Shown piece by piece: positions 1-29,165 of a DNA stretch of 64,000 nt. Source of the stretch: Dictyostelium discoideum (lineage: Eukaryota); NCBI GenBank assembly GCA_000004695.1, contig CM000152.2, positions 480,001 to 544,000 of the forward strand. Reading direction: 5' to 3'. Made by a program: the position numbers and the translations under genes. A model generated the notes under the pieces. The model saw nothing but the letters and a program-made list of their open reading frames with translations. It did no database searches and was not told the DNA's origin. Position 1 is the first letter of the stretch. Every line of letters begins with the position of its first letter.

Positions 1-694
1 GAATGAGTTGAAGTGGATAGCATTGAATTGTTTATTTTAAAAATATTAAATATTGTGTTTCAAATTTTATTATTATTATTACTATAATTATAATTTTTTT
101 ATTTTTAAGATTTAAAAAAAAATGTTTTAAATAGAAATACTATTTATAACATTTTTTTTTTTAATTTTTTTTTTTTTTTTATTTTTAATTTATTCCACCA
201 TTTAAATTTTTTTTTTTTTTTTTCATTTTTCGATATTGAGAATAACACATCCGATGAGTTTAATTTTTTTTTTTTTTTTTTTCATTTTTTTTTTTTTTTT
301 TTTTATTAATTTGGTTGTGTGTTGATTATTGGAATGGGTTACTTATCAAAATGAATGATTGTGATTATTGGAATGTTTTCTTTACGAAATTGATCGAATA
401 TTTCCTAATTCTACTAATCTACAAATTTTAAAAAAAGAAAATAAAAGAAAAAAAAAAGAAAAACAAAAAAAAAAAAAAAAAAAAAAAAACATTATTGTTC
501 ACACACTCCAAACATACCAAAATTGTTATTTATTCAAATATGTATAAAATTTAAATGATAATGTGGGTTAAAAAAAATTGTTTAATATATAAATGTACCC
601 ACACTCAAAAAAAAAAAAAATTTATGTATTTAACCTACCCCATTTCAATTAATAAGGTGCTGCTATATTTATATATATATAATAAAATATTTTC

Positions 695-726
<32 letters not shown>

Positions 727-1046
727 CCCCTGCATTTTGTATAATTGTTTTATTTTTATTAATTTTAATTTCAATTTAAATAATTATTATTTTTAATAAT
801 TTTTTTTTTGTTATTTTTATTTTTTTTTTTTTATTATTTAAAAAAAAAAAAAAAAAAAAAAATTAATTTTAAATTATTGTAGTTAGTTTATCATTATTTT
901 GTTTTATCTTTTTTTTATTTATTTATTCAATAATTGTGTGTGTGTATCTTTATTTCGTACATAATTTCTTTTAATAAATAATTTAAACAACATAAAAAAA
1001 AAAAAAAAAAAAATAATAATAATAATAATTTTAAATAATAATTTTT

Positions 1047-1100
<54 letters not shown>

Positions 1101-1109
1101 ATAATAATA

Positions 1110-2678
1110 ATGAGATTTTTATTATCTCTTTTATCTATAATATTATTATTAAATGGTATTAATGCAATAAATTATAGTGGTAATTATTTAAAACCACTTG
1201 ATTTTAGATGGATTGGTAAATTTTGTTTTGATCAACAAGGCGGTTCAATTCAAGTGACAAGATTCCAATCAACTTCAAACACAACTAAAATTTTATTATA
1301 TTCAGATTCAAATCCACATTATAATGAAATTTTAGATGATTTTGGTAAAAATGAAATATCATGTCAAGAAAAGGTAAACATATTTTTTAATTTTTTTTTT
1401 TAAAAAATATATTAAATTTAAAATTTATCTGAATAATTTATTAATTTTTTTATTTTATTTTTTTATATTTTTTATTTTTTATTTTTTCTTTTTAAAAAAA
1501 ATATTTAATAGATTTTATGGGCAAATTATACTTATATTAACCCAGATAAAGTTGGTGAAATTACAAATTCAAATCGTAATTATAATGTTAAAAAAGTTTC
1601 ACAAAGTCGTGATCGTTTCTGGATAATTACAATGGCTGATTGTGATCAAAAATTCATTGATGATCATAGAATTCCATTTGTATCGACCTATACATTTGAA
1701 GTTCAAAATAGTGGTGATTCATTCGATAGTCAATTATCAGCAGAACAACAATCAATTCCACAAGGTCAAATCTTTTTCTTCCTTTTATATACTGCATTTT
1801 TAATTATATCAATTATCTATTCAGTAGCTTTAAAGAAAAAAGGATTAGAAGGTAAAGCAATTCATTTCTTTATTGCAATTTTATTAATATTTTTAATTTC
1901 ACTTGCACTTTATATTTCAAATTGGGCACATATATTAAAATATCATAAATATGAATTAAGATATTTAAATCTTTTTGGTAATAGTAAGTTTTTTTTTTTT
2001 TATTATAATTTATTATTATTAATTTTTTATATTAATAAATATTTTTTTTATTTATATTTTTTTTATTTTTTTTATTTTTTTTTTTTTTTATAAGTTTTTG
2101 AAATTTTAGGTAATGGTTTATTTGTAGCATTAATTTTAATGATTGGCCAAGGTTGGACTACTTCAATTTATTTTGGATCATTAGTTAAACAAATGATAAA
2201 TATATTAGTTTCAATTGCATTGATTGTTATTGGGTGGGTTGCATATGTTTATTATGTTTATCATTCAAAGGAACAAAATAGTTATATTTATTTCATGGAT
2301 ACTTGTCCAGGTTACTTTTTATTGGCATTATATGTTGTAATCATTGGTTATTTCTGTTGGGCAAATTATGTAAATCGTAACAAACAAAATGAATCAATTA
2401 AAAAGAATTTTATTTTAATTTTTACAATCATCTTTGTATTTTGGTTAATTAGTCATCCATTGGTTGTAATCGTTGCTCATTTCATGGATCCATGGGTTAA
2501 ATATAAAGTCATCGCTTTATTAAATTTAACAATCAATGCAATCTTTTTCATCATTCTCTTAATAATTTTCCGTCCATCTCATAATAATATGATTGTTAAA
2601 ATTTTACAATCTGATGATAAATCAAATGATATGAAAGAAATTATTGAAAATGAAAAATCATATAATGGTGCAGATTAA
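1110..2678 (+). CDS. Signal-peptide + 7TM membrane protein, LUSTR (GPR107/GPR108, lung seven-transmembrane receptor)-like; 3 exons, ~434 aa
   Basis: join(1110..1373,1512..1983,2110..2678). Exon 1 ends CAAGAAAAG|GTAAAC; acceptor TTTAATAG|ATT at 1512; donor AAT A|GTAAGT at 1984; acceptor TTTTAG|GT at 2110. The phases link the ORF-track pieces at 1110, 1632 and 2139 into one frame. N-terminal signal peptide MRFLLSLLSIILLLNGINA, then a ~150-aa luminal domain and seven hydrophobic helices. The architecture and motifs resemble the paralog at 29789-31581. Confidence 0.55.
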
Positions 2679-2680
2679 GA

Positions 2681-2718
<38 letters not shown>

Positions 2719-2758
2719 ATAAAAAATTTATAAAATAAATAAAATAAAATATAATATC

Positions 2759-2795
<37 letters not shown>

Positions 2796-2822
2796 TGAAA
2801 TAAATAAAATGTTTTCCCAAGT

Positions 2823-2873
<51 letters not shown>

Positions 2874-3939
2874 AAAAATAAAATAAATAAATATTAAAAA
2901 TAATAATAAATATAATAATTAATTCCATTCATTTATTTTTTAAAGAAAAATTAATTAAAAATAATAATTAAAAATTCTTAAATGTGAATAATTAAAAGAA
3001 TTTTAAAAAAATCATAATTATTTTTTTATTTTTTTTATTTATTTAATTATTATTTATTTATTTTATTTATTTTCTTTTTAAAAATTTGCTATGTTTTAAA
3101 TTTGTAATATATAACGCAATAATATATGGCTTACAATAGATGGTTTGGTTATATTAGTTTTTTCACAATTGTGTTAGGGTAGAATAAAAAAACGATTAAA
3201 GAACCCCTCTAACCCTCTCCATAGAATTTTAAAAAAAGTTTAAACAACCTCCTTTATTTAACCCTAAATTTAATACGAGGTTTCGTGTTTTTTATCTTTT
3301 TTTCACTTTTTTTTTGTTTTTTCAAACACAAATATCACCCCCCACTCTCGCGCCCACACTCTAGAATGTGGAAAATTAAATTAATAAAATTATCAAAACA
3401 ACAACTACAACAATAAAATACAAAAAAAAAAAAAATACATATATACATATATATAATATAAAAAATATAAAGAGGGGGAAAATTTTGAAAGGACATTGCC
3501 ACTAAAAATGGAAATTCAAATAAATATATAGGGTTTTCAAGAAATTTAAATACAATAAAAAAAAATAAAAAATAAAAAAAAAAGTACAATATCCTAATTA
3601 TTTCATAAAATAGATAAAATCAACAACACCACCACCAACCGCCATAAATTTCAATCACATGTAATCTTGGTTTTTATGATTTATTTTATAATTTATTTTA
3701 TTTTTAATTTAATTATTTTTTTTTTTTTTTTTTTTTTAAAACTATTTTTAACACATTTGTGTGTGGTGCCACCAATAATGAGAGAATAGTGTGGTGGTTT
3801 AAAAAAAAAAAAATTCTTTAAATCAATTTATAAAATTAACAAAGGCAAAATAAATTTATTTTTTTTTATTGTTCAGTAAATTAAAAAAATACATAAAACA
3901 TTCTATTTTTATTTAAATATTAATATTTATACTTTTCCG

Positions 3940-14867: not shown

Positions 14868-15034
14868 CGATAATATTTCAAAACAGTTTATTGGTTGTTG
14901 GTTATTTGTTAATGTGAAAATTCACCGTACAATATAAAAAAAAAAAAAAAAAAATTTTATATTATCATATATATATATATATTATGAATAACATTTATTT
15001 ATTTGAATTTCCCAAATATTTAAGATAATTTTTT

Positions 15035-15060
15035 AGAATGTTCTAGAACATTCGAAGAAT
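15035..15060. promoter_or_regulatory. Heat-shock element (nGAAnnTTCn x5) in left ITR
   Basis: agaatgttctagaacattcgaagaat carries five contiguous alternating GAA/TTC pentamers and lies 44 bp upstream of the ATG at 15104. Confidence 0.6.
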
Positions 15061-15103
15061 AAAAAAATTTTCGAAAGAAAAGTAAAAATTTCGAACCGGC
15101 ACA

Positions 15104-15607
15104 ATGACTCGATCATTGTGTAAGGTCGAAAAACTGAAAGGTCTCATTATTACTACTGACTCAATTAAAGGTCCAGTTATTAATGCTAAAGAACAAAGAA
15201 GTGGTGTTGTTTCAATATTAGAATTAACATCGTTAGATGATACAAACTCTCAAGTATGCCCTGTTCGCCACCTTGCAACATACCTTAGAGCCTCTAAAGG
15301 AAAAAGAAAGCCCCATTCGGGTGACTCTGTCTTTATTAAGAATGAGGGTGAACCGCTTCTAGTTAATGATATTAACTCAATTGTACTATCAACACTCTCA
15401 AAGTCAGGTATTGATATTGTCAAGTTCAAATCTCACTCTACCCGTTCCGCTATGGCTTCTTTGCTGTTGTCCAATAACTTTTCGTTCCACGTTGTTAAGA
15501 AGATGGGTCGTTGGAAATCAAATGATACTGTAGATACCTTCTACGATAAAAGAATCATTGGTGAAAAATCTGGTGGTTTCTTAAATACTGTCGTCCAAAT
15601 TTCATAA
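15104..15607 (+). CDS. Tyrosine recombinase (DIRS-type) C-terminal fragment, 167 aa; ATG lies inside the left ITR
   Basis: ORF 15104..15607 contains the catalytic signature H-x-x-R (HSTRSAMAS) and the terminal Tyr box (VDTFYDKR), i.e. the R-H-R-Y C-terminal half of a phage-integrase-family recombinase, but none of the N-terminal half. The start codon and first 12 codons are encoded within the ITR (15104-15140). Confidence 0.6.
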   Translation: MTRSLCKVEKLKGLIITTDSIKGPVINAKEQRSGVVSILELTSLDDTNSQVCPVRHLATYLRASKGKRKPHSGDSVFIKNEGEPLLVNDINSIVLSTLSKSGIDIVKFKSHSTRSAMASLLLSNNFSFHVVKKMGRWKSNDTVDTFYDKRIIGEKSGGFLNTVVQIS

Positions 15608-15929
15608 TATATATATATATATGATAATATAAATTAAAAATTTAATTTATTAAATTATATTTTATATTAAATATATATATATATATTAGTCCCATCCCAC
15701 CCGCCCTTAGTCGGAATTCCATAAATCAAATTGTTTTAGTTTTTTGTGCCACTATTTATACGTTTTTATTTTCTTAAAAATTTCGCAAAACTCAAAAAAA
15801 TAAGAGTTTTCGACCCTTCACAACTTTGTGCATAGTGTCGGTTCGGAATTTTTCAGTTTTTCGACCTTACACAATGATCGCGTCATTGTGCCGGTTCGAA
15901 ATTTTTACTTTTCTTTCGAAAATTTTTTT

Positions 15930-15955
15930 ATTCTTCGAATGTTCTAGAACATTCT
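15930..15955. promoter_or_regulatory. Heat-shock element copy in right ITR (inverted)
   Basis: attcttcgaatgttctagaacattct is the reverse complement of the left-ITR element. Confidence 0.55.
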
Positions 15956-16503
15956 AAAAAATTATCTTAAATATTTGGGAAATTCAAATAAATAAATGTT
16001 ATTCATAATATATATATATATATTTAATATAAAATATAATTTAATAAATTAAATTTTTAAATCTTGGCCCATTGTCAAAAAAAAAAAAAACCTCTCATAT
16101 TTTTTTTGGGGCCTCAATCGTTATTTTTCATATGAAAAAAGTTTTAAAAAATTAAAATTTTTTTTTCAAGATATTTTCTAAATAGTGCAAAAATTTTTTT
16201 TTTTTTTTTTTTTTCATTTTTTTTTTTTTTTTTTTTAAAATATTTTTCCGTGTCCTTGGGTTTAACAACTATTAAAAAAAAAAAAAAAATAAAATAATAT
16301 TCAAAAAAATGAACCACTTCCATAGTGATGCTGGCAAAATTAAAATATATTTTTTCTATCTTTGTTGCGCCATATTTCTAATAATTTTTAAAAATGATTA
16401 TTAATATCTAAATCAGCTCACTTGATTGGATGTGAGTGTCTTTTTGTTTCGTTTCATTTTTTAAATATTACTCTACACGATTATCAAGATGATTTTCTTT
16501 TTT

Positions 16504-18290: not shown

Positions 18291-19717
18291 ATGAAAGTAT
18301 TACAAGAGATTAATCTTACATATAGTATATTGGTTATTGCCGATTTTTCATCAATATTTGGATGTTTATTAGTTTTAATAGCATTTAAAAAATTAAAACT
18401 TCTTCGTAATCATATTACACGTGTTATTGCATGTTTTTGTGTATCATCATTATTAAAAGATATAATATCAACAGGACTCACTCTTTCATTAGGTCCACAA
18501 AATGAAGCTGGTTCAACATCTTTCCAATGTTATTTATATGCAATAACTATTACATATGGTTCATTAGCTTGTTGGTTATGGACATTATGTTTAGGTATAT
18601 ATATATTTATATATATTTATATAATTATTTAAAAAAGTTTATATAACTAACTGAAAACTTTAATTTTTATTTTTTATTTTTATATACAGCATTCAGTATT
18701 TATAATTTAATTGTTAAAAGAGAACCGGAACCAGAGAAATATGAAAAATTTTATCATGGAGTTTGTTGGACCATACCATTAATTTGTGTAATTGTTATGT
18801 TAGCAAAGAAAACAATTGAACCAGTTGGTAATTGGTGTTGGATTAGTGAGAAATATGTTGGATATAGATTTGGGTTATTTTACGGACCATTCTTTGCAAT
18901 TTGGATAATATCAGCAGTATTGGTTGGTTTAACATCCAGATACACCTATTCAGTGATTAGAAATAGTGTAAGTGATAACAAGGATAAACATATGACCTAC
19001 CAATTCAAATTAATCAATTATATCATTGTTTTCCTCCTATGTTGGGTATTTGCAATTGTTAATAGAATTTTAAATGGACTTGGTTATTACCCAACCCTTC
19101 CAAATATTCTACATACCTATTTCAGTGTATCACATGGCTTCTTTGCTTCGGTCACCTTTATTTATAATAATCCATTAATGTGGAGATATTGGGGTTCAAA
19201 AATATTTTTAATATTTGCAAAGTTTGGTTACTTTGTTGAACTACAAAGAAGATTAGATAGAAATAAAAATAATAATAATCCATCTCCAATTTTAAATTCA
19301 TATGCTGCAACAGTTTATCATTCTTCAACAATTGAATCATTATCATTACAACATAATAATGATATTTCAAATGATAATCAACAACAACAACAACAACAAC
19401 AAACACCCCAACAACCTCAACAACAATTTCAACAACAACAATCACCAACTGTAATTGAAATGCAAAATTTAAAACAGGATCAAAATATTGAAAATAATGA
19501 ACAAAATGAAAATTGTTATAATACAATTGATACAAATATAGAAATTAATACAAATAAATTAAATGATAATTCTTTTGAAATAACGCAACCTTCAAATGAT
19601 TTAAATACTATTGAAAATAATAATAACTATAATAATAATAATAATAACAATAATAATAATTCATTAGTAATAGAAAAGGAAAAAGATGAAAGAGAAAAAA
19701 AAGATAATAAGTTTTGA
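18291..19717 (+). CDS. carD: cAMP receptor, cAR family (class E GPCR); 2 exons, 443 aa, the size of cAR4
   Basis: join(18291..18594,18690..19717). Donor TTA G|GTATAT, acceptor TATACAG|CA. The product carries cAR-family signatures I recall from cAR1: [85 protein letters not shown] and [27 protein letters not shown]. The paralog assignment rests only on the predicted length (443 aa) matching what I recall for cAR4. Confidence 0.8.
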
Positions 19718-19807: not shown

Positions 19808-21412
19808 TTATTTATTTTTATTATATAATTTTGGAATTATTGATTTTCTTTTTAATAGTATAATAAATAAAGAAATTATAAAAACTAAAACAGATATATT
19901 TGTTAATGTATAAAAAGCAGACATTGCTGAAGTAATTGGATATTCTTTATCAACTTGATTATTGACTGAATTTGTAAATTTTGTAAAATCCTCTTCTTTT
20001 TGATTTGGATTAATTTCATTTTGTATTGAATTACGATGATTATGATTTTCAATTAATTGATTTATTGATTTTTGATAAAATATTTTTTTTTCAATATATA
20101 TATATCCCTTATTATTCATTAACTTTACAAATGTGTATTCTAGTGTTTCATTATGAATTGGACCAATATAACATGTTAATTCATCAAATAAAATTTTATT
20201 ACTATTATCATTATTATTATCATTATTATTATTTTTATTATTATTATTGTTATTATTATTATTTATTATACCTATGGTATCGTATGATACCTTTTTAAAA
20301 TTAATAATTGATGATGAACATTGTTCATCACCAATTAAAACTATTATATCTAAATTAAAATGTAAACCATAAATTGTAATTACTCCACCATCTCTTGATA
20401 AACCTTTAATTGATTTTATATCTGGTAATTGGTATGAAAATTGTAATTTATTTTCAACAGAATTTATTAATATATTATTTAAATATACTTTTACTGGAAT
20501 TAATTTTCCATCATGTACACCATCTGGTAATGTTGCTTCAATTAAATTTGAATTTAAAATTCTTACATTTGAACAATACTTTTCACCAACTTGTACTGAA
20601 AAATTACCTTTTAAATTGTTACCATTAATTATCAACTTTCCATTCTTTATTAATAATGATGATAATTCTTTATTTAAACTTAATATTTCAATATTATTAT
20701 TGTTATTATTATTATTAATATTAATTAATTTATCATTTTGTTTTTTATTATTATTATTATTATTATTTAAAATTAAATTAATTGGTAATGATTTATTATA
20801 ATTCCAATTAATTACTAAATATAATTGAGTATTGGTTAATAAATTTATTGTTGATTTTGGTATTTTAAAATTAATTTCATTTTCGTTTATTAAAGTATTA
20901 GAATTTAATATTAAAATTTCATCAGTATTATTCCCAGTCCATAATATGAAATTTGTATCGAAATTTAAATAATACCCATTTAATTTTAAAATACCATCAT
21001 TTGTTAAAATTAAATTTGATATTATTGGATATGGATGAACTGATTCAATTAATATAATACCACATTTACTACTACTACCTTGATTATTGATTTGATTTGT
21101 TACTAAACATGCGTCAATTGAATGTGCATTTAATTGATTTTTATATTTACTTGATTCAAAAGTACATTCTCTATAGATATCATTCACTATTTTACAATCA
21201 AAACCAATTGTTATTGTTGGTTTTGAAAATTCAATATCACTATAAAGTGTCCAATTACTATAATAAGCATTATTTATATCTGTTTTTATTTTAATATATT
21301 CTTTATTAATTTGAAATTCTTTTATTATAGGTATATAATCAATTAATTCACATTTTATAATATTAATAAATATAAATATTAAAAAAATTATAAAATATTT
21401 TAAATTATTCAT
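19808..21412 (-). CDS. Type I membrane glycoprotein (signal peptide, Asn-rich ectodomain with possible IPT/TIG-like beta-sandwich repeats, single C-terminal TM), 534 aa
   Basis: Single ORF 19808..21412. N-terminal signal peptide MNNLKYFIIFLIFIFINIIKC; many N-glycosylation sites; C-terminal TM ISVLVFIISLFIILL followed by a basic tail KRKSIIPKLYNKNK. Confidence 0.5.
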   Translation of the reverse strand: MNNLKYFIIFLIFIFINIIKCELIDYIPIIKEFQINKEYIKIKTDINNAYYSNWTLYSDIEFSKPTITIGFDCKIVNDIYRECTFESSKYKNQLNAHSIDACLVTNQINNQGSSSKCGIILIESVHPYPIISNLILTNDGILKLNGYYLNFDTNFILWTGNNTDEILILNSNTLINENEINFKIPKSTINLLTNTQLYLVINWNYNKSLPINLILNNNNNNNKKQNDKLININNNNNNNNIEILSLNKELSSLLIKNGKLIINGNNLKGNFSVQVGEKYCSNVRILNSNLIEATLPDGVHDGKLIPVKVYLNNILINSVENKLQFSYQLPDIKSIKGLSRDGGVITIYGLHFNLDIIVLIGDEQCSSSIINFKKVSYDTIGIINNNNNNNNNKNNNNDNNNDNSNKILFDELTCYIGPIHNETLEYTFVKLMNNKGYIYIEKKIFYQKSINQLIENHNHRNSIQNEINPNQKEEDFTKFTNSVNNQVDKEYPITSAMSAFYTLTNISVLVFIISLFIILLKRKSIIPKLYNKNK

Positions 21413-21816: not shown

Positions 21817-22425
21817 TTAAATTTTTATAAATTTATTAAATAATTTAATTATTTTGTTTTTTTGATTTAAATTTCTTAAAACTTTTTTATATTCTTTACA
21901 ATTTTTAATTATTTGTTTTTCTTTATTTTCAATTGTTTCAATTAATAAATGAAAAATTGAACAAACTGATGATAAATTTTTAGAAGATGTAATTATTGTT
22001 GGTGCATCAAATACTTTTGATAATTCCAAAACTTCATTTTTTGAAATTTGATTTTTCAAATCAGATTTATTTGCAACCAATATTATTGGTGGCATAATAT
22101 TACTTGATTTAAAATTTGATTTTATTAAATCTTTATAAACTTGAATTTTGTCTATTGATTCTCTATCATTTAAAGAATAAACAATTATAAAACATTGTAC
22201 ATTTGAAATCGTATCTGGTACCAAACAATTATATTCCTCTTGACCAGCTGTATCGTTACAACAAATTGTATATAATTTATTTTTGTATGAATATAATTTA
22301 TTACATTTATTTTCTATTGTCGGTATATATGAATCTTCAAAATATGAATTCATAAACATATTAATTATTGATGATTTTCCAGTTTTTGCTGCTCCCAAAA
22401 TTCCACAATTTATAATTTTTCTCAT
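21817..22425 (-). CDS. Ras-family small GTPase (no CAAX box), 202 aa, single exon
   Basis: G1 GILGAAKTGKSS, G3 DTAGQE, G4 ANKSD, G5-like SSK. Intact ORF 21817..22425. Confidence 0.6.
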   Translation of the reverse strand: MRKIINCGILGAAKTGKSSIINMFMNSYFEDSYIPTIENKCNKLYSYKNKLYTICCNDTAGQEEYNCLVPDTISNVQCFIIVYSLNDRESIDKIQVYKDLIKSNFKSSNIMPPIILVANKSDLKNQISKNEVLELSKVFDAPTIITSSKNLSSVCSIFHLLIETIENKEKQIIKNCKEYKKVLRNLNQKNKIIKLFNKFIKI

Positions 22426-24441: not shown

Positions 24442-24843
24442 ATGGAAAATTTAAATACAACAAGTACGGCAGCATTAACTGGTATGACAAAACAAGAGAA
24501 TGATGCATCATATGCAGTTCTATTGATTGCAGATTTTACATCAATAATTGGTTGTACATTAGTTTTATTAGGTTTTTGGAGATTAAAATTACTTCGTAAT
24601 CATATTACAAAAATAATTACCTTTTTTTGTTCAACATCATTAGCCAAAGATTTAATATCAACAATTTTAACATTGATTGAAAAGAAACAATCAAATGGGT
24701 CATTCCAATGTTACCTTTACGCAACTGTTATCACTTATGGTTCATTGGCATGTTGGCTTTGGACATTATGTTTATGTAAGTATTTGTTATAGAAATAAAA
24801 ATAATAAAAATAATAAAATAATTTTAAAAATTATGTTTAGAAA

Positions 24844-24881
<38 letters not shown>

Positions 24882-25795
24882 AATTTAATTTTTATTATTA
24901 TTTAATATTAATATTATTATTATTTCTATTACTTTTACAGCATTTAGTATTTATAATTTAATTGTAAAGAGAGAACCAGAGCCAGAGAAATTTGAAAAAT
25001 ATTATCATGTTTTTTGTTGGGTTGTACCATTTATAATGTCAGTGATAATGTTGTCAAAGGGTGTTATAGAGGTGACGGGTAATTGGTGTTGGATTGGTAA
25101 CACTTATGTTGGGTATAGATTTGGCTTGTTTTACGGACCATTTCTTGCAATTTGGTTCCTTGCTGCCGTGTTGGTTGGTTTGACTTCGAGGTATACCTAT
25201 AAGGTGATTAGAAGTAGTGTTAGTGATAATAAGGATAGACATATGACCTACCAATTCAAGTTAATCAATTATATAATTGTTTTCCTTTTATGTTGGGTGT
25301 TTGCTGTTATTAATCGTATTGTCAATGGCTTGAATATGTTTCCAGCTTGGGTTAGTATTCTTCACACCTATCTAAGTGTATCGCATGGTTTCTATGCTTC
25401 GGTGACTTTTATCTATAATAATCCATTGATGTGGAGATATTTAGCATCAATAATTTTAATTCCATTCACAAAGTTTGGTTATTTTGTTGAAACTCAACAA
25501 AGATTAGAAAAAAATAAAAATAATAATAATCATTCACCAGTTGGGTTATCAAATAATGCTCAAAATAATAATCATCATCATAATCATAATAATAATCACA
25601 ATAATAATCATAATAATCATAATAACAATAATAATAACAATAATAGTGATTTCGTTAATAATGACTCAAGTAATTATTATACTGCTTCAATGATTGAATC
25701 ATTCTCTGTTCAAAATGAAAATTCAAAATCTATAAATGGTGCTGATAATTTTAAACAAAATGGTGCAAGTCAACAAGATGATAAAGATTCTCCAA

Positions 25796-25878
<83 letters not shown>

Positions 25879-26079
25879 TATAATAATAAAGATATTGAAC
25901 CAATTGACAATTGTAATACTAATTCCATACCAATGGATAATATTGCCACTAGAATTGAAATACCTCCACAACATCCAACATTAACTCCTCAACAATCATT
26001 ACAAGAAATTAATTTAAATGATGACGACAACAAAATTAATACTCACCAAAGTAACAAAAAAAAAGATTCAAATGTTTAA
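24442..26079 (+). CDS. carC: cAMP receptor, cAR family; 2 exons, 490 aa, the size of cAR3; His/Asn-rich C-terminal tail
   Basis: join(24442..24775,24941..26079). Donor TTA T|GTAAGT, acceptor TTTTACAG|CA. The cAR signatures match carD above and cAR1 almost residue for residue in TM1-TM7. The paralog assignment is by predicted length only. Confidence 0.8.
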
Positions 26080-26382: not shown

Positions 26383-26465
26383 CCGGCTTTGGCGCAATGG
26401 TAGCGCGATTGACTGTAGTAATATTAGTGATCAATCGGTTGCTAGTTCGAATCTGGCAAGCCGGA
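26383..26465 (+). tRNA. tRNA-Tyr (anticodon GUA) with ~11-nt intron 3' of position 37
   Basis: Acceptor stem CCGGCTT/AAGCCGG with discriminator A; D-arm GCGC-AATGGTA-GCGC; anticodon stem ATTGA/TCAAT; anticodon loop C-U-G-U-A-G with intron TAATATTAGTG (eukaryotic tRNA-Tyr genes are intron-containing); T-arm GCTAG-TTCGAAT-CTGGC. Followed by a CTTTT pol III terminator. No encoded CCA. Confidence 0.75.
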
Positions 26466-26489
26466 CTTTTCGTAAAAAAAATTAAAGTC

Positions 26490-26539: not shown

Positions 26540-29165
26540 ATTAAAAGAACATAAATTCATATTGGTATACCAATTAAATTAATAAATTTAATCCACAAGC
26601 TATTATCTGACTCACAAGCAAAAATTTCAATTAATGGTAAAACGACCAGAAAATTCGATATTAAAAGAGGTGTAAAACAAGGCGACCCAATCTCGGCCAC
26701 TTTATTTGTAATTGTAATTGAAATATTAGCAAGAACAATAAATGCAGACAATTCAATAATTGGATTACCAATTTCACCCAATCCACAAATTAAAATCAAA
26801 TTTACCCAATTTGCAGACGACTCTACAACATACAACATCAACTACGAACAACAACAACAATCAATCAAACATTTCCATAATTTCTGCGCTTCAACATCAT
26901 CATCATTAAATTTTGACAAAAGTGCAATAATAGAAATCAACCCCCACAAAATCACTGATAAACACATAATAAACAACATTCCACAATCAAAAAGAATACC
27001 AATTACCAAAAAAGATCAATCAGAAAGAGTTCTTGGCTATTTCTTTAATCATAATGGTTTACATAGGAAATTACCAGAAACAATGAAAACACTGATCAAA
27101 TCATTAGTACTATGGAAAACTAGTGGCACAACATTAAAAACAAAAACAACCATCATAAACACCTACTCACTATCACCAATAACATATTTATCATACCTTG
27201 AAGAATTTACAAAAGATGAAGAAATTCAAATTAATAAATTAATCTCATGGTTTATGAATTCTCCCGCAAATTCTGAATCACCAACTCTCAATACCAATTC
27301 CATTGAAAACAACACATCAACCATCCATTCACGTGCAAAAATACCTTTGATGTGTTATGATAGATCATTAAAACCATTAAAAGAAGGTGGTTGGGGTATG
27401 TGGAATATACAATTACGACAAGTTGCTCAAAAGATTTGGATATACAACAGATTTTTACAAATGCATAAATCTGCAAACAATTCAATATACATGATAAGTT
27501 GGATGGATCAAATCATCAACAAATCAATCTCTTCTCCATACCTTATAAAAATCAAAAAAGAATGGGAAAACTATGCAACTCAAATTGGACATCTAAAAGA
27601 TAAAGTTCAAACCCTACAACCAATATTAACAAAAAACCAAACCTCTCAAACATTAAACACAAATAATATTTCACTACCACCAACACTCAAAGAAATCTAC
27701 TCGAAAATACTCAACAATCACCAATGCAAATCAAAAGACTATATTGACAAGAAATATTCAGATCTACTTCTTAATTCGCACCAACAATCAATACAACTAT
27801 TATGGAAATACACTTACGACCAACTTTTTGTCAAAATTCAAAAATTAAAAGATCCAAAAGGCCGTGATACAATGCAAAGATTCCATGCTAGATTTCTTCC
27901 AATTAATCATCTACACAACAAAGTTTGCCCCATTTGCAACAATGAAATGAATAATGATCCCTATGGTCATTTGTTTTTCAATTGTCAACACACAATCAAC
28001 TTCATAAACCACGAAAAATTAAAATATTTTATATATAAAAATTGCAATGGAAACAAAAACTGGTCACTAACAAAAAACCAAACAACAAAATTATACACAC
28101 TCATTTATAAACCACAAACAAACAACAAAGCATTTAAACCAGATCCAACTATCAATATAAATTTTCATTTTGCAGAAAACGCACAATATAAAAAATACAG
28201 GTTCAACTGGAATTATATAAACACAAATCTTGATCTAGTCAGAACACATGCATATTGGAACATAATCTCATTAGTTATTCACCAAATATGGATATGGTTA
28301 TGCAAATCATTATTTGACATCAATATAACTCAATCAATTGACAATTGGAACAACCAAATAAACAACACAACACTAGATTATGATATATTAAAATCAAAAT
28401 GGCACAAGCTAATAAGATTGGAATATTCAAGAACATTATCAAACTTTAACCAATACTCAATTAAAAACAACCTCACAAAAACTCAAAAAGAAACCCAATG
28501 GTCCGAAACCATCAAAAAATTTAAAAAAGAATGGAGCATAAACACAAATGAACCAATTCCAACAATTACACCACCAATTAATTATTAATTGCCTAATCTA
28601 AAATAACATACCATTTTAAATTCACAAAAACTAAAAAACCTAAAATAAATAAATAAAAATAACATACTAATTGTATACTACAATAGTTTATTTATATCAA
28701 AAAAAAAAAAAAAATACCCAATTCCGAGAACATCTAATTCCATCGTCTATTAATAAAACTATTAATTATTGCTAACTTCCTTTACTGGATAAAGGTGTTT
28801 AATTAAAATTTCTAAAAAAATCATCCAAAATCAATATCAATCATTTTTGTCAATCCAAATATATCCAAATATAAGAAGTTCCTGAAACAATTAATAATTG
28901 TTTTTTTCCTTTAATGGATAAACACTGGTTAATCAACTAATCTAAAAAAATTAAATATATTCAAAAAACAATGGATACATTAATTTTTTTATTTTTTTAT
29001 TTTATATAATTTTGTGTATTTTTGGGTGCTCTATATTTATATATTAAATTCTTGTAAAATAAATTAATTTGTTAAAAAAAAAAATAAAATAAAAATAAAA
29101 AAAAAAAAATTAAAATATTTTTATTAACAATTCCCCAAACCAAAAAAAAAAAAAAAAAAAAAAAA
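26540..29165 (+). mobile_element. TRE3-type (tRNA-gene-targeted, 3'-side) non-LTR retrotransposon, 5'-truncated and defective copy
   Basis: It begins ~75-90 bp downstream of the tRNA-Tyr 3' end, in the same orientation. It encodes the C-terminal two-thirds of a LINE-type reverse transcriptase (FDIKRGVKQGDPISATLF, FADD) followed by a Cys/His-rich tail (CPICNNEMNNDPYGHLFFNCQH). The 3' UTR has imperfect internal repeats and ends in an A-run near 29135-29165. Confidence 0.65.
26581..28588 (+). pseudogene. Retrotransposon ORF2 (reverse transcriptase) remnant with frameshift
   Basis: The RT motifs are in frame 1 (26581..27045) and the long ORF 27083..28588 is in frame 2. The overlap at 26972..27045 means a 1-nt frameshift there. 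The ORF has no 5' part (no endonuclease or N-terminal RT motifs). Confidence 0.6.

Follow-up and report, generated by a model that had tools for sequence, protein, structure and literature searches.

An internally deleted copy of the retrotransposon DIRS-1 in a chromosome arm of Dictyostelium discoideum

The 64,000-nucleotide stretch analysed here (the window) matches chromosome 3 of Dictyostelium discoideum AX4. In a unique intergenic region it contains a single, internally deleted copy of the tyrosine-recombinase retrotransposon DIRS-1 (Table 1). In blastn comparisons, this copy is colinear with DIRS-1 elements at two other loci (L001 and L002) at 96-98% nucleotide identity, and it is 99.4% identical to the full-length DIRS-1 at the orthologous site of a near-identical D. 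discoideum assembly (GCA_054883475.1, probably AX2-214; AX2-like below). Its ends are defined in three ways. The segments 16006-16060 and 14956-14988, taken together, are the exact reverse complement of the internal complementary region (ICR; 88/88); excision of the element regenerates the exact empty site (...AAAAT/ATCTTGG) found at the orthologous locus of the wild strain GCA_054859385.1; and the full-length copy in GCA_054883475.1 has identical termini. An earlier sequence-only reading had already proposed a DIRS-1 origin, which the nucleotide identity and the exact ICR bear out, but its span of 14967-16023 has to be extended to the ends given here.

Table 1. Features of the defective DIRS-1 copy (window coordinates)
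Feature	Position	Strand	Details
Whole defective DIRS-1 copy	14956-16060	+ (DIRS-1 sense strand = +)	1105 bp
Left inverted terminal repeat (ITR) remnant	14956-15139	+	outer 184 nt only; 14956-14966, left-specific terminus; 14967-15139, left arm of 173-nt inverted repeat
Heat-shock element, left arm	15036-15053		GAAnnTTCnnGAAnnTTC, palindromic
Chimeric ORF	15104-15607	+	167 codons/aa
Deletion junction	15137-15139 (15139/15140)		3-nt AAA microhomology
ICR	15601-15688	+	88 bp; 88/88 exact
ICR, first part	15601-15633		33 nt, complementary to left terminus
ICR, second part	15634-15688		55 nt, complementary to right terminus
Complete right ITR	15689-16060	-	372 nt; identical to AX2-like copy; promoter faces leftward, antisense to ORF
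ITR TATA box	15746-15761	-	GTATAAATAGTGGCAC; only copy in window, in right ITR
Right arm of 173-nt inverted repeat	15851-16023	-	part of right ITR
Heat-shock element, right ITR	15937-15954		GAAnnTTCnnGAAnnTTC

The canonical DIRS-1 of D. discoideum is a 4.8-kb element (Cappello et al, 1985, as described in PMC7192593 and PMC3950715). Several features by which membership of this family is recognised are present in the window copy, namely the nucleotide identity, ITRs bearing a heat-shock element, an ICR and integration without a target-site duplication. The ICR divides as does the published one, which is likewise 88 = 33 + 55 (PMC7192593), and the recombinase ORF ends inside it (stop codon at 15605-15607). 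The absence of a target-site duplication follows from comparison with the empty site in GCA_054859385.1; on inspection of the sequences, no trinucleotide shared by the circle junction and the target proved compatible with that allele. What sets the copy apart from an autonomous DIRS-1 is its coding and promoter content: of the three ORFs (Gag, RT/RNase H/methyltransferase and full recombinase), only the last 155 recombinase codons are left, and a complete left ITR with TATA box and sense start site is missing. Unlike the centromeric DIRS clusters, the copy resides in a chromosome arm.

The left ITR remnant differs from the first 184 nt of the full-length AX2-like copy at just one position, 15109, where it has T instead of G. 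Together with the right ITR it forms the inverted repeat described by the sequence-only reading, with arms that are complementary at 172 of 173 positions (99%) and lie 711 nt apart; the sole mismatch is 15109, opposite 15881. Intact DIRS-1 ITRs match across ~300 nt, and the arm length of 173 nt does not reflect the design of the element, because it is set by the deletion breakpoint. The interior had been put at about 700 bp of recombinase sequence; the length is right, but just 468 nt of the segment are ORF remnant, with the ICR (88 nt) and the innermost 162 nt of the full-length right ITR making up the rest. Nor does the near-identity of the arms indicate a recent insertion or gene conversion, as had been suggested: within two other DIRS-1 copies, left and right ITRs are identical at 172/172 and ~300/300 positions, compared with 91-98% between copies, so that identity within a copy is the rule for DIRS-1.

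Each ITR carries a heat-shock element (GAATGTTCTAGAACATTC) consisting of four perfect alternating pentamers, and these two are the only matches in the 64 kb, where 0 are expected by chance. The presence of the element in both arms was thus correctly recognised, but the fifth pentamer initially counted (GAAGAA, 15054-15059 in the left arm) is out of register, with a 3-nt instead of a 2-nt spacing. A heat-shock promoter in the DIRS-1 ITR is announced in the title of Zuker et al (1984), as cited in PMC2175303.

Neither the 167-aa ORF nor the two flanking ORFs nor the AX4 protein P0115 had an entry in exact-protein look-ups, and the orthologous loci were therefore reached through homologues from other strains. 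In GCA_054883475.1, a complete DIRS-1 of 4824 bp occupies the same site in the same orientation, with identical ITRs and all three ORFs open, and the flanks show 0 substitutions in 5382 bp relative to the window. Compared with this copy, the window element lacks nt 185-3900 (+/-3; 3719 bp). The gap takes away 40% of the left ITR on its inner side, TATA box included, the whole of ORF1 (Gag) and of the RT/RNase H/methyltransferase ORF, and ~85% of the recombinase ORF. The breakpoint sequences in the full copy are ...CTGAAA/AATTCC and ...TCGTTC/AAAGGTCTC; in the window, GTCGAAAAACTGAAA is joined to GGTCTCATTATTAC, and the k-mer GTCGAAAAACTGAAAGGTCTCATTATTAC spans the junction. Since a full-length element occupies the exact same site in a near-identical strain, the deletion either occurred in place or is an artefact, and the locus cannot be viewed as a mini-element that was recently inserted as a unit.

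Besides the deletion, seven substitutions distinguish the window copy from its sister-strain counterpart (window alleles 15109T, 15303A, 15358T, 15360T, 15461T, 15479T and 15482T). All fall within 15109-15482, near the junction, with none in the 5.4 kb of flank, the ICR or the right ITR, and zero indels accompany them. Such junction-clustered changes cannot be explained by ordinary mutation over laboratory time, and they point to either a complex repair event or a problem of sequence quality or assembly. Conversion by another DIRS copy, or reads mis-recruited from one, was considered as the source of the private alleles and rejected, as 0 of 147 family proteins carry them.

The chimeric ORF joins two reading frames. 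Its ATG lies inside the repeat, 44 nt past GAAGAA, and codons 1-12 are ITR sequence, as noted previously; in an intact ITR, this frame is only 22 codons long. From codon 13 to codon 167, the ORF consists of the final 155 codons of the DIRS-1 recombinase. The ORF has more than 100 Dictyostelium DIRS homologues and matches the Pfam family Phage_integrase (PF00589) with 37 bits against a cut-off of 27.1, over profile positions 82-166 of 172. The assignment to the C-terminal part of a DIRS tyrosine recombinase, with H-x-x-R, W and Y retained, is thereby confirmed. Searches against sequences of solved structures gave no match, either for the ORF alone or for a family profile.

The retained part is, however, only a fraction of the protein. 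In the intact copy of GCA_054883475.1, the homologous ORF encodes 1007 aa from the first Met, with a SAM-like domain at residues 704-769; the retained part begins at about residue 853, ~85 residues downstream, and the window ORF consequently lacks the N-terminal core-binding (SAM-like) DNA-binding domain. Homology to the recombinase starts at KGLIITT, 10 residues past the R in GLARSSDL. This arginine, one of only five invariant columns among 35 diverse DIRS-type recombinases (24-39% identity), is the first catalytic Arg (R79 of the homologue P0003); it lies upstream of the retained part and is absent from the ORF. It cannot be located from profile coordinates, because the Pfam and NCBIfam profiles align just the C-terminal half of the catalytic domain, even in full-length recombinases. 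We assigned it from conservation in the 35 distant homologues and from motif spacing, since a profile comparison with a Cre sequence aligned only H-x-x-R...W and was not significant (E = 0.42). The catalytic residues of Cre are R173-K201-H289-R292-W315-Y324, a spacing that the intact DIRS protein resembles (R79-K106-H188-R191-W214-Y224). The window ORF thus shares the C-terminal H-x-x-R, W and Y with Cre/XerD-type recombinases and matches the catalytic domain profile but, unlike them, begins past the first catalytic Arg of the R...H-x-x-R...H/W...Y set and has no core-binding domain. These losses speak against the earlier suggestion that the catalytic half might act in trans. Furthermore, four of the six substitutions in the ORF are non-synonymous, private and at near-invariant positions (alleles in 0/147 family proteins), including a P to S change in the near-invariant NNVPFHVV motif, a pattern that would argue for relaxed constraint.

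A similar loss affects the promoter. In an intact left ITR, the TATA box is found at element position 274, downstream of the ATG at position 149, and the breakpoint at 184 has removed it together with the start-site region; according to PMC7192593 and PMC3950715, sense transcription starts at the inner end of the left LTR. With the left TATA box and start region deleted, the sole complete promoter, in the right ITR, would fire antisense to the ORF, from a start predicted at ~15720-15730. The idea that the left heat-shock element drives the ORF is therefore not upheld, although a cryptic start may exist between this element and the ATG, at the AATAAAAAAAT stretch at ~15059-15069.

Taken together, the window copy is probably an inert deletion derivative of a full-length DIRS-1 that was shortened in place, which the sequence-only reading had offered as its fallback and which the evidence favours. 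In the sequence of events that we propose, a full-length DIRS-1 would have inserted here in the NC4 laboratory lineage without target duplication, and in the lineage (or the sequence) that the window stands for, 3719 bp would then have been lost, starting at ITR position 185 and ending midway through the recombinase ORF, with the ends rejoined at the AAA microhomology. Still present are the outermost 184 nt of the left ITR with its heat-shock element, the last 155 recombinase codons, the ICR and the intact right ITR; this remnant cannot encode Gag, RT/RNase H/methyltransferase or a complete recombinase. The 167-codon ORF links an ITR frame that is normally untranscribed to the recombinase tail, in frame by chance (1 in 3). 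Transcription of the locus, if any, would probably yield an E1-like RNA of ~0.75 kb that starts in the intact right ITR and runs antisense through the ORF, and any extra antisense RNA or siRNA from this copy would be marginal compared with more than 200 other DIRS-1 copies.

This account presupposes that the deletion is real, as it appears to be. Alternatively, the strain may hold a full-length 4.8-kb DIRS-1, and the 1.1-kb version may stem from a clone or PCR product that had suffered a deletion, or two contig ends that reach into the repeat may have been joined wrongly. We regard this as unlikely, but as a serious contender. It would account for the combination of 0 substitutions in 5382 bp of flank with a 3719-bp deletion and seven substitutions within ~370 bp around the junction, and a single Sanger read starting in unique DNA would be long enough to cover either of the kept pieces, which reach 184 and 921 nt into the repeat. 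Long inverted repeats also make DNA prone to deletion in E. coli. The window sequence matches the 2005 Sanger AX4 reference (P0115 is 100% identical), for which a coverage of 8x is given (Table 1 of PMC12745789). On the other hand, the window has no N gap, the junction is a clean 3-nt microhomology, and the seven differences include no indels and are not massed in the final 164 nt before the junction, as those of decaying read tails would be. Moreover, the derived alleles were not found in other DIRS copies, and mis-recruited reads from the sampled copies are thus no explanation. Were the artefact nevertheless confirmed, the locus would hold an intact DIRS-1 in euchromatin, and there would be no mini-element.

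Two opposed ITRs around a recombinase fragment could also constitute a natural RNAi trigger, in which convergent transcription of the ~0.5-kb fragment yields dsRNA and siRNAs that silence the DIRS-1 ORFs in trans. An engineered cassette of left ITR, trigger and right ITR has this architecture (lITR-trigger-rITR; Friedrich et al, 2015, PMC4482531): with fragments of 400-700 bp it was shown to give dsRNA, ~21-nt siRNAs and silencing in trans, and opposed ITRs outperformed opposed actin15 promoters. The window element shares this layout, with opposed DIRS-1 ITRs around ~0.5 kb and an intact right ITR, and sense small RNAs from DIRS-1 mostly map to the recombinase ORF (PMC3950715). Unlike the cassette, however, the window copy has a truncated left ITR without TATA box and start region, which makes convergent transcription doubtful; the insert consists of the ICR and the recombinase tail of DIRS-1 itself; and the copy is present once, in a chromosome, instead of on a multicopy vector. 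It is also one copy among hundreds of DIRS-1 elements that already yield sense and antisense RNA, the sister strain does without the deleted copy, and selection would have had no time to act, because the copy arose inside the laboratory lineage. A trigger function is accordingly very unlikely. Such a function would be compatible with an origin by deletion, to which it adds a role. A more specific version, which we consider very doubtful, combines a real deletion in the AX3/AX4 lineage with such a natural opposed-ITR cassette: antisense RNA, dsRNA and siRNAs against the recombinase region would be produced upon heat shock or during development, and the seven substitutions would reflect one error-prone, microhomology-mediated repair event at the inverted-repeat element.

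The functional role first envisaged for the ORF is highly improbable. It would require that, upon heat shock, the left heat-shock element drives an mRNA starting ~30 nt downstream, and that the 167-aa recombinase acts in trans as a catalyst or dominant-negative. In its favour, the element lies 44-50 nt upstream of the ATG that opens the 167-codon ORF, an A/T-rich TATA-like stretch follows it, and H-x-x-R, W and Y are kept. Yet the native TATA box and start site are deleted; in intact ITRs the same ATG precedes the TATA box and opens nothing but the 22-codon frame; the protein is devoid of the invariant first Arg and the core-binding domain and carries the four private non-synonymous changes, P to S in NNVPFHVV among them; and the intact right-ITR promoter would yield antisense RNA over the ORF. 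Finally, formation of a non-autonomous mini-DIRS before integration, with mobilisation in trans, appears far-fetched: both termini and the exact ICR, which is required for DIRS-1 retrotransposition (PMC7192593), are kept, the junction has a 3-nt microhomology, and left ITRs are normally copied from right ITRs, but a strain with identical flanks has the full-length copy, with the same ends, at this very site, and it is very unlikely that two elements integrated independently at one and the same nucleotide. In ~35 kb of DIRS-rich loci the junction was not found a second time, the 147 family proteins include no fusion ORF, and a truncated DIRS-1 built for experiments underwent reverse transcription without retrotransposing (PMC7192593). 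The specific route of an aberrant cDNA that stops in the recombinase region, snaps back on the right ITR at AAA, is completed through the ICR and integrates is rejected in view of the full-length copy at the same site.

The engineered element in question, trDIRS-1bsr, served to test for an action of DIRS-1 proteins in trans (Malicki et al, 2020, PMC7192593). Like the window copy, it is an internally deleted DIRS-1, with LTRs, ICR and 3' ORF parts kept; in contrast to it, trDIRS-1bsr retained a complete left LTR and gave cDNA without retrotransposition. The window copy is smaller still and has no sense promoter core.

The feature is best read as an ordinary remnant of a well-known element and not as a new heat-inducible mini-element. 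Its wider biological import is small, as descriptions of DIRS-1, its heat-shock ITRs, the ICR and many defective copies go back to the 1980s. In annotation, the 167-codon ORF is best treated as a pseudogene fragment instead of a recombinase gene. The size difference at this locus, 1.1 kb in the AX4-like window versus an intact 4.8-kb DIRS-1 in the AX2-like assembly, either marks the strains or reflects an error in a reference sequence. In the AX2-like strain, the locus provides an apparently intact DIRS-1 outside the centromere, and thus a candidate active copy for studies of mobilisation.

Comparison with DIRS-rich loci, reached through homologues, identifies the feature as a DIRS-1 copy, an already known type of element. 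Using blastn, window positions 15137-16060 run colinear with the 3′ ends of known copies at 97% identity and 14954-15139 align to the outer portion of DIRS-1 inverted terminal repeats (ITRs), the two matches overlapping by 3 nt; the origin proposed in the sequence-only reading thus holds, as does its inverted-repeat structure (see Table). The internal complementary region (ICR; 15601-15688) equals, at 88/88 positions, the right end (16006-16060) followed by the left end (14956-14988) in reverse complement, which fixes the limits of the element. This is the same 88 = 33 + 55 structure as in canonical, 4814-bp DIRS-1 (PMC7192593). The left ITR ends after 184 nt. Both arms carry the heat-shock element (HSE) GAATGTTCTAGAACATTC with four perfect alternating GAA/TTC pentamers, but the fifth that had been claimed (GAAGAA) is out of register. 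In the 64-kb window (G+C 12-38%), GAATGTTCTAGAACATTC has just two matches, both in the arms, with none expected by chance.

Table. Features of the window and of the orthologous DIRS-1 copy in the sister-strain assembly (L005)
Feature	Position	Strand	Size	Remarks
Whole element	14956-16060		1105 bp	Limits from ICR match to both termini
Left arm	14967-15139		173 nt	Inverted repeat, 99% complementary, spacing 711 nt (repeat search)
Right arm	15851-16023		173 nt	Inverted repeat, as left arm
Right ITR	15689-16060			Complete
ORF	15104-15607	+	167 codons
Paralogous gene 1	18291-19717	+		Read as two ORFs ~165-245 nt apart
Paralogous gene 2	24442-26079	+		Read as two ORFs ~165-245 nt apart
Immunoglobulin E-set domain gene	19808-21412	minus		Between paralogous pair
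Small GTPase gene	21817-22425	minus		Between paralogous pair
L005 DIRS-1 ORF			335 aa	Gag-like
L005 DIRS-1 ORF			608 aa	RVT_1, RNase H, Dam-methylase domains
L005 DIRS-1 ORF			1007 aa	Recombinase frame; SAM-like and Phage_integrase domains

The history of the copy emerges from the corresponding locus in each of two further D. discoideum assemblies, found via homologues of a flanking gene. In GCA_054859385.1 (L003) the flanks are directly joined: the window without the element reproduces its sequence exactly (...AAAAT|ATCTTGG), so this is an empty site without target duplication. No trinucleotide overlap of the circle junction with the target could be fitted to this empty-site allele, and the adjacent poly-A tract (window 14932-14955; L003 ~16296) counts 19 A both in the window and in the AX2-like strain (L005, below) against 14 A in the empty-site strain. 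In GCA_054883475.1 (L005), a 4824-bp DIRS-1 sharing both ends occupies the site (L005 16339-21162, minus strand, 738 bp upstream of a gene), with identical left and right ITRs and all three ORFs open. The window copy therefore did not arrive as a mini-element, contrary to the recent insertion originally envisaged; by alignment, it corresponds to the L005 insertion minus element nt 185-3900 (±3; 3719 bp), with AAA microhomology at the junction. A second copy of this junction was found neither in ~35 kb of DIRS-rich DNA nor among 147 family proteins. The apparently intact L005 element, located in a chromosome arm, is a candidate active copy beyond the centromeric clusters. L005 and L003 are almost certainly AX2-214 and CR116C, respectively, strains of Holland et al. 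2025 (PMC12745789). A flanking protein is 100% identical to a D. discoideum AX4 protein, and judged by sequence the window is AX4 chromosome 3 or indistinguishable from it.

AX2 and AX3/AX4 were separately derived from NC4 only decades ago. The L005 flanks differ from the window only in homopolymer length, with no substitutions in 5382 bp, and none occur in the 453 bp of ICR and right ITR. All seven substitutions lie between 30 nt left and 343 nt right of the junction (window 15109-15482 versus L005 1596-5685, reverse complement), a clustering with a probability of ~1.6e-8 under uniformity. Six change G/C to A/T, none is an indel, and every derived allele is private to the window copy. We lean towards a real deletion, in which a single complex, error-prone repair event would have produced both the deletion and the cluster. 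Such packing around the junction beside substitution-free flanks could also reflect an erroneous window sequence at the repeat, stemming from a clone that had suffered a deletion, from a PCR product or from a Sanger-assembly mis-join; this is the distinctly less probable reading, as the window has no N gap, the junction is a clean microhomology, the differences include no indels, and the 164 nt adjoining the junction are free of errors. Independent point mutations are not credible given the short divergence of the strains. Whether the deletion is real or artefactual, this is a known element rather than a novel kind of heat-inducible mini-element, and the one loose end is the disagreement between AX4 and AX2, mutation cluster included.

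Near-identity of the ITRs, earlier taken as a sign of recent insertion or conversion, is uninformative because it is usual within a copy: left and right ITRs match at 172/172 positions in an L002 copy and ~300/300 in the L005 copy, while different copies are 91-98% identical and private variants are common to both ITRs of one copy. The pattern agrees with a published model whereby each replication cycle rebuilds the left LTR from the right (PMC7192593). Some ITRs in DIRS clusters (L001 2456-2797; L004 9701-10037 and 12212-12572) have swapped termini, an inner end of right type being paired with an outer terminus of left type or vice versa, which would fit flipping of the element interior by recombination between inverted repeats.

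The ORF, with >100 homologous Dictyostelium proteins, encodes a truncated DIRS recombinase, as predicted: its score against Pfam PF00589 (Phage_integrase) exceeds the gathering threshold, with only profile positions 82-166 of 172 covered. Across 35 DIRS-type recombinases (24-39% identity), only R79, G179, A193, W214 and Y224 (numbered as in the intact recombinase P0003) are invariant, H188 and R191 nearly so. The R79-K106-H188-R191-W214-Y224 spacing resembles that of Cre. Aligning the profile directly with Cre gave no significant match. Homology in the window ORF begins at KGLIITT, downstream of the GLARSSDL motif containing R79; the predicted protein thus lacks the first catalytic arginine, along with the SAM-like core-binding domain, which speaks against a catalytic half acting in trans. 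Six substitutions separate the ORF from its L005 counterpart. Of these, four alter the encoded residue (R>K, Q>L, V>F, P>S) at highly conserved positions, giving alleles absent from all other family proteins, a pattern indicative of a decaying fragment rather than a maintained gene.

Nor does the HSE appear to drive this ORF. An intact ITR has a TATA box (GTATAAATAG) at position 274, and the sense start site has been placed where the left LTR meets the element interior, with ~300 nt of this LTR missing from the 4.5-kb RNA and extrachromosomal cDNA (PMC7192593, PMC3950715). With the breakpoint at 184, both the TATA box and the start region are lost. Within the window, GTATAAATAG is confined to the minus strand of the right ITR. 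The right LTR promotes transcription inward, in the antisense direction, and heat shock induces the 900-nt antisense RNA E1 (PMC3950715, PMC4482531); the sole complete promoter here thus opposes the ORF. The ATG is indeed ITR-derived (element position 149), but its frame in an intact ITR spans only 22 codons, and the ORF is a fortuitous in-frame joining of this normally untranscribed frame to the recombinase tail.

The feature is most likely an inert DIRS-1 remnant. What survives of the initial interpretation is an HSE-bearing, probably inert derivative with a truncated recombinase, not a heat-driven, trans-acting, recent mini-element. If transcribed, it would yield a ~0.75-kb E1-like RNA from the right ITR, antisense across the ICR and ORF and into the left arm. 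By analogy with an engineered lITR-fragment-rITR cassette that feeds siRNA production (PMC4482531), this RNA and any read-through could supply the DIRS-1 siRNA pool, marginally so because the left promoter is cut short and hundreds of other DIRS-1 copies exist. Trans-mobilisation is unlikely, since the sense promoter core is lost and an engineered truncated DIRS-1, which unlike the feature kept its full left LTR, was reverse-transcribed without retrotransposing (PMC7192593).

Elsewhere in the window, a 501-codon ORF (27083-28588) with no Pfam match lies in a strongly A-rich stretch ~620 bp downstream of a tRNA-Thr(TGT) gene (26383-26466) and may be what is left of a TRE-type retroelement that targets tRNA genes. 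The L003 and L005 counterparts of the paralogous pair bear the Pfam domains Dicty_CAR/7tm_2 (cAMP-receptor-like GPCR).
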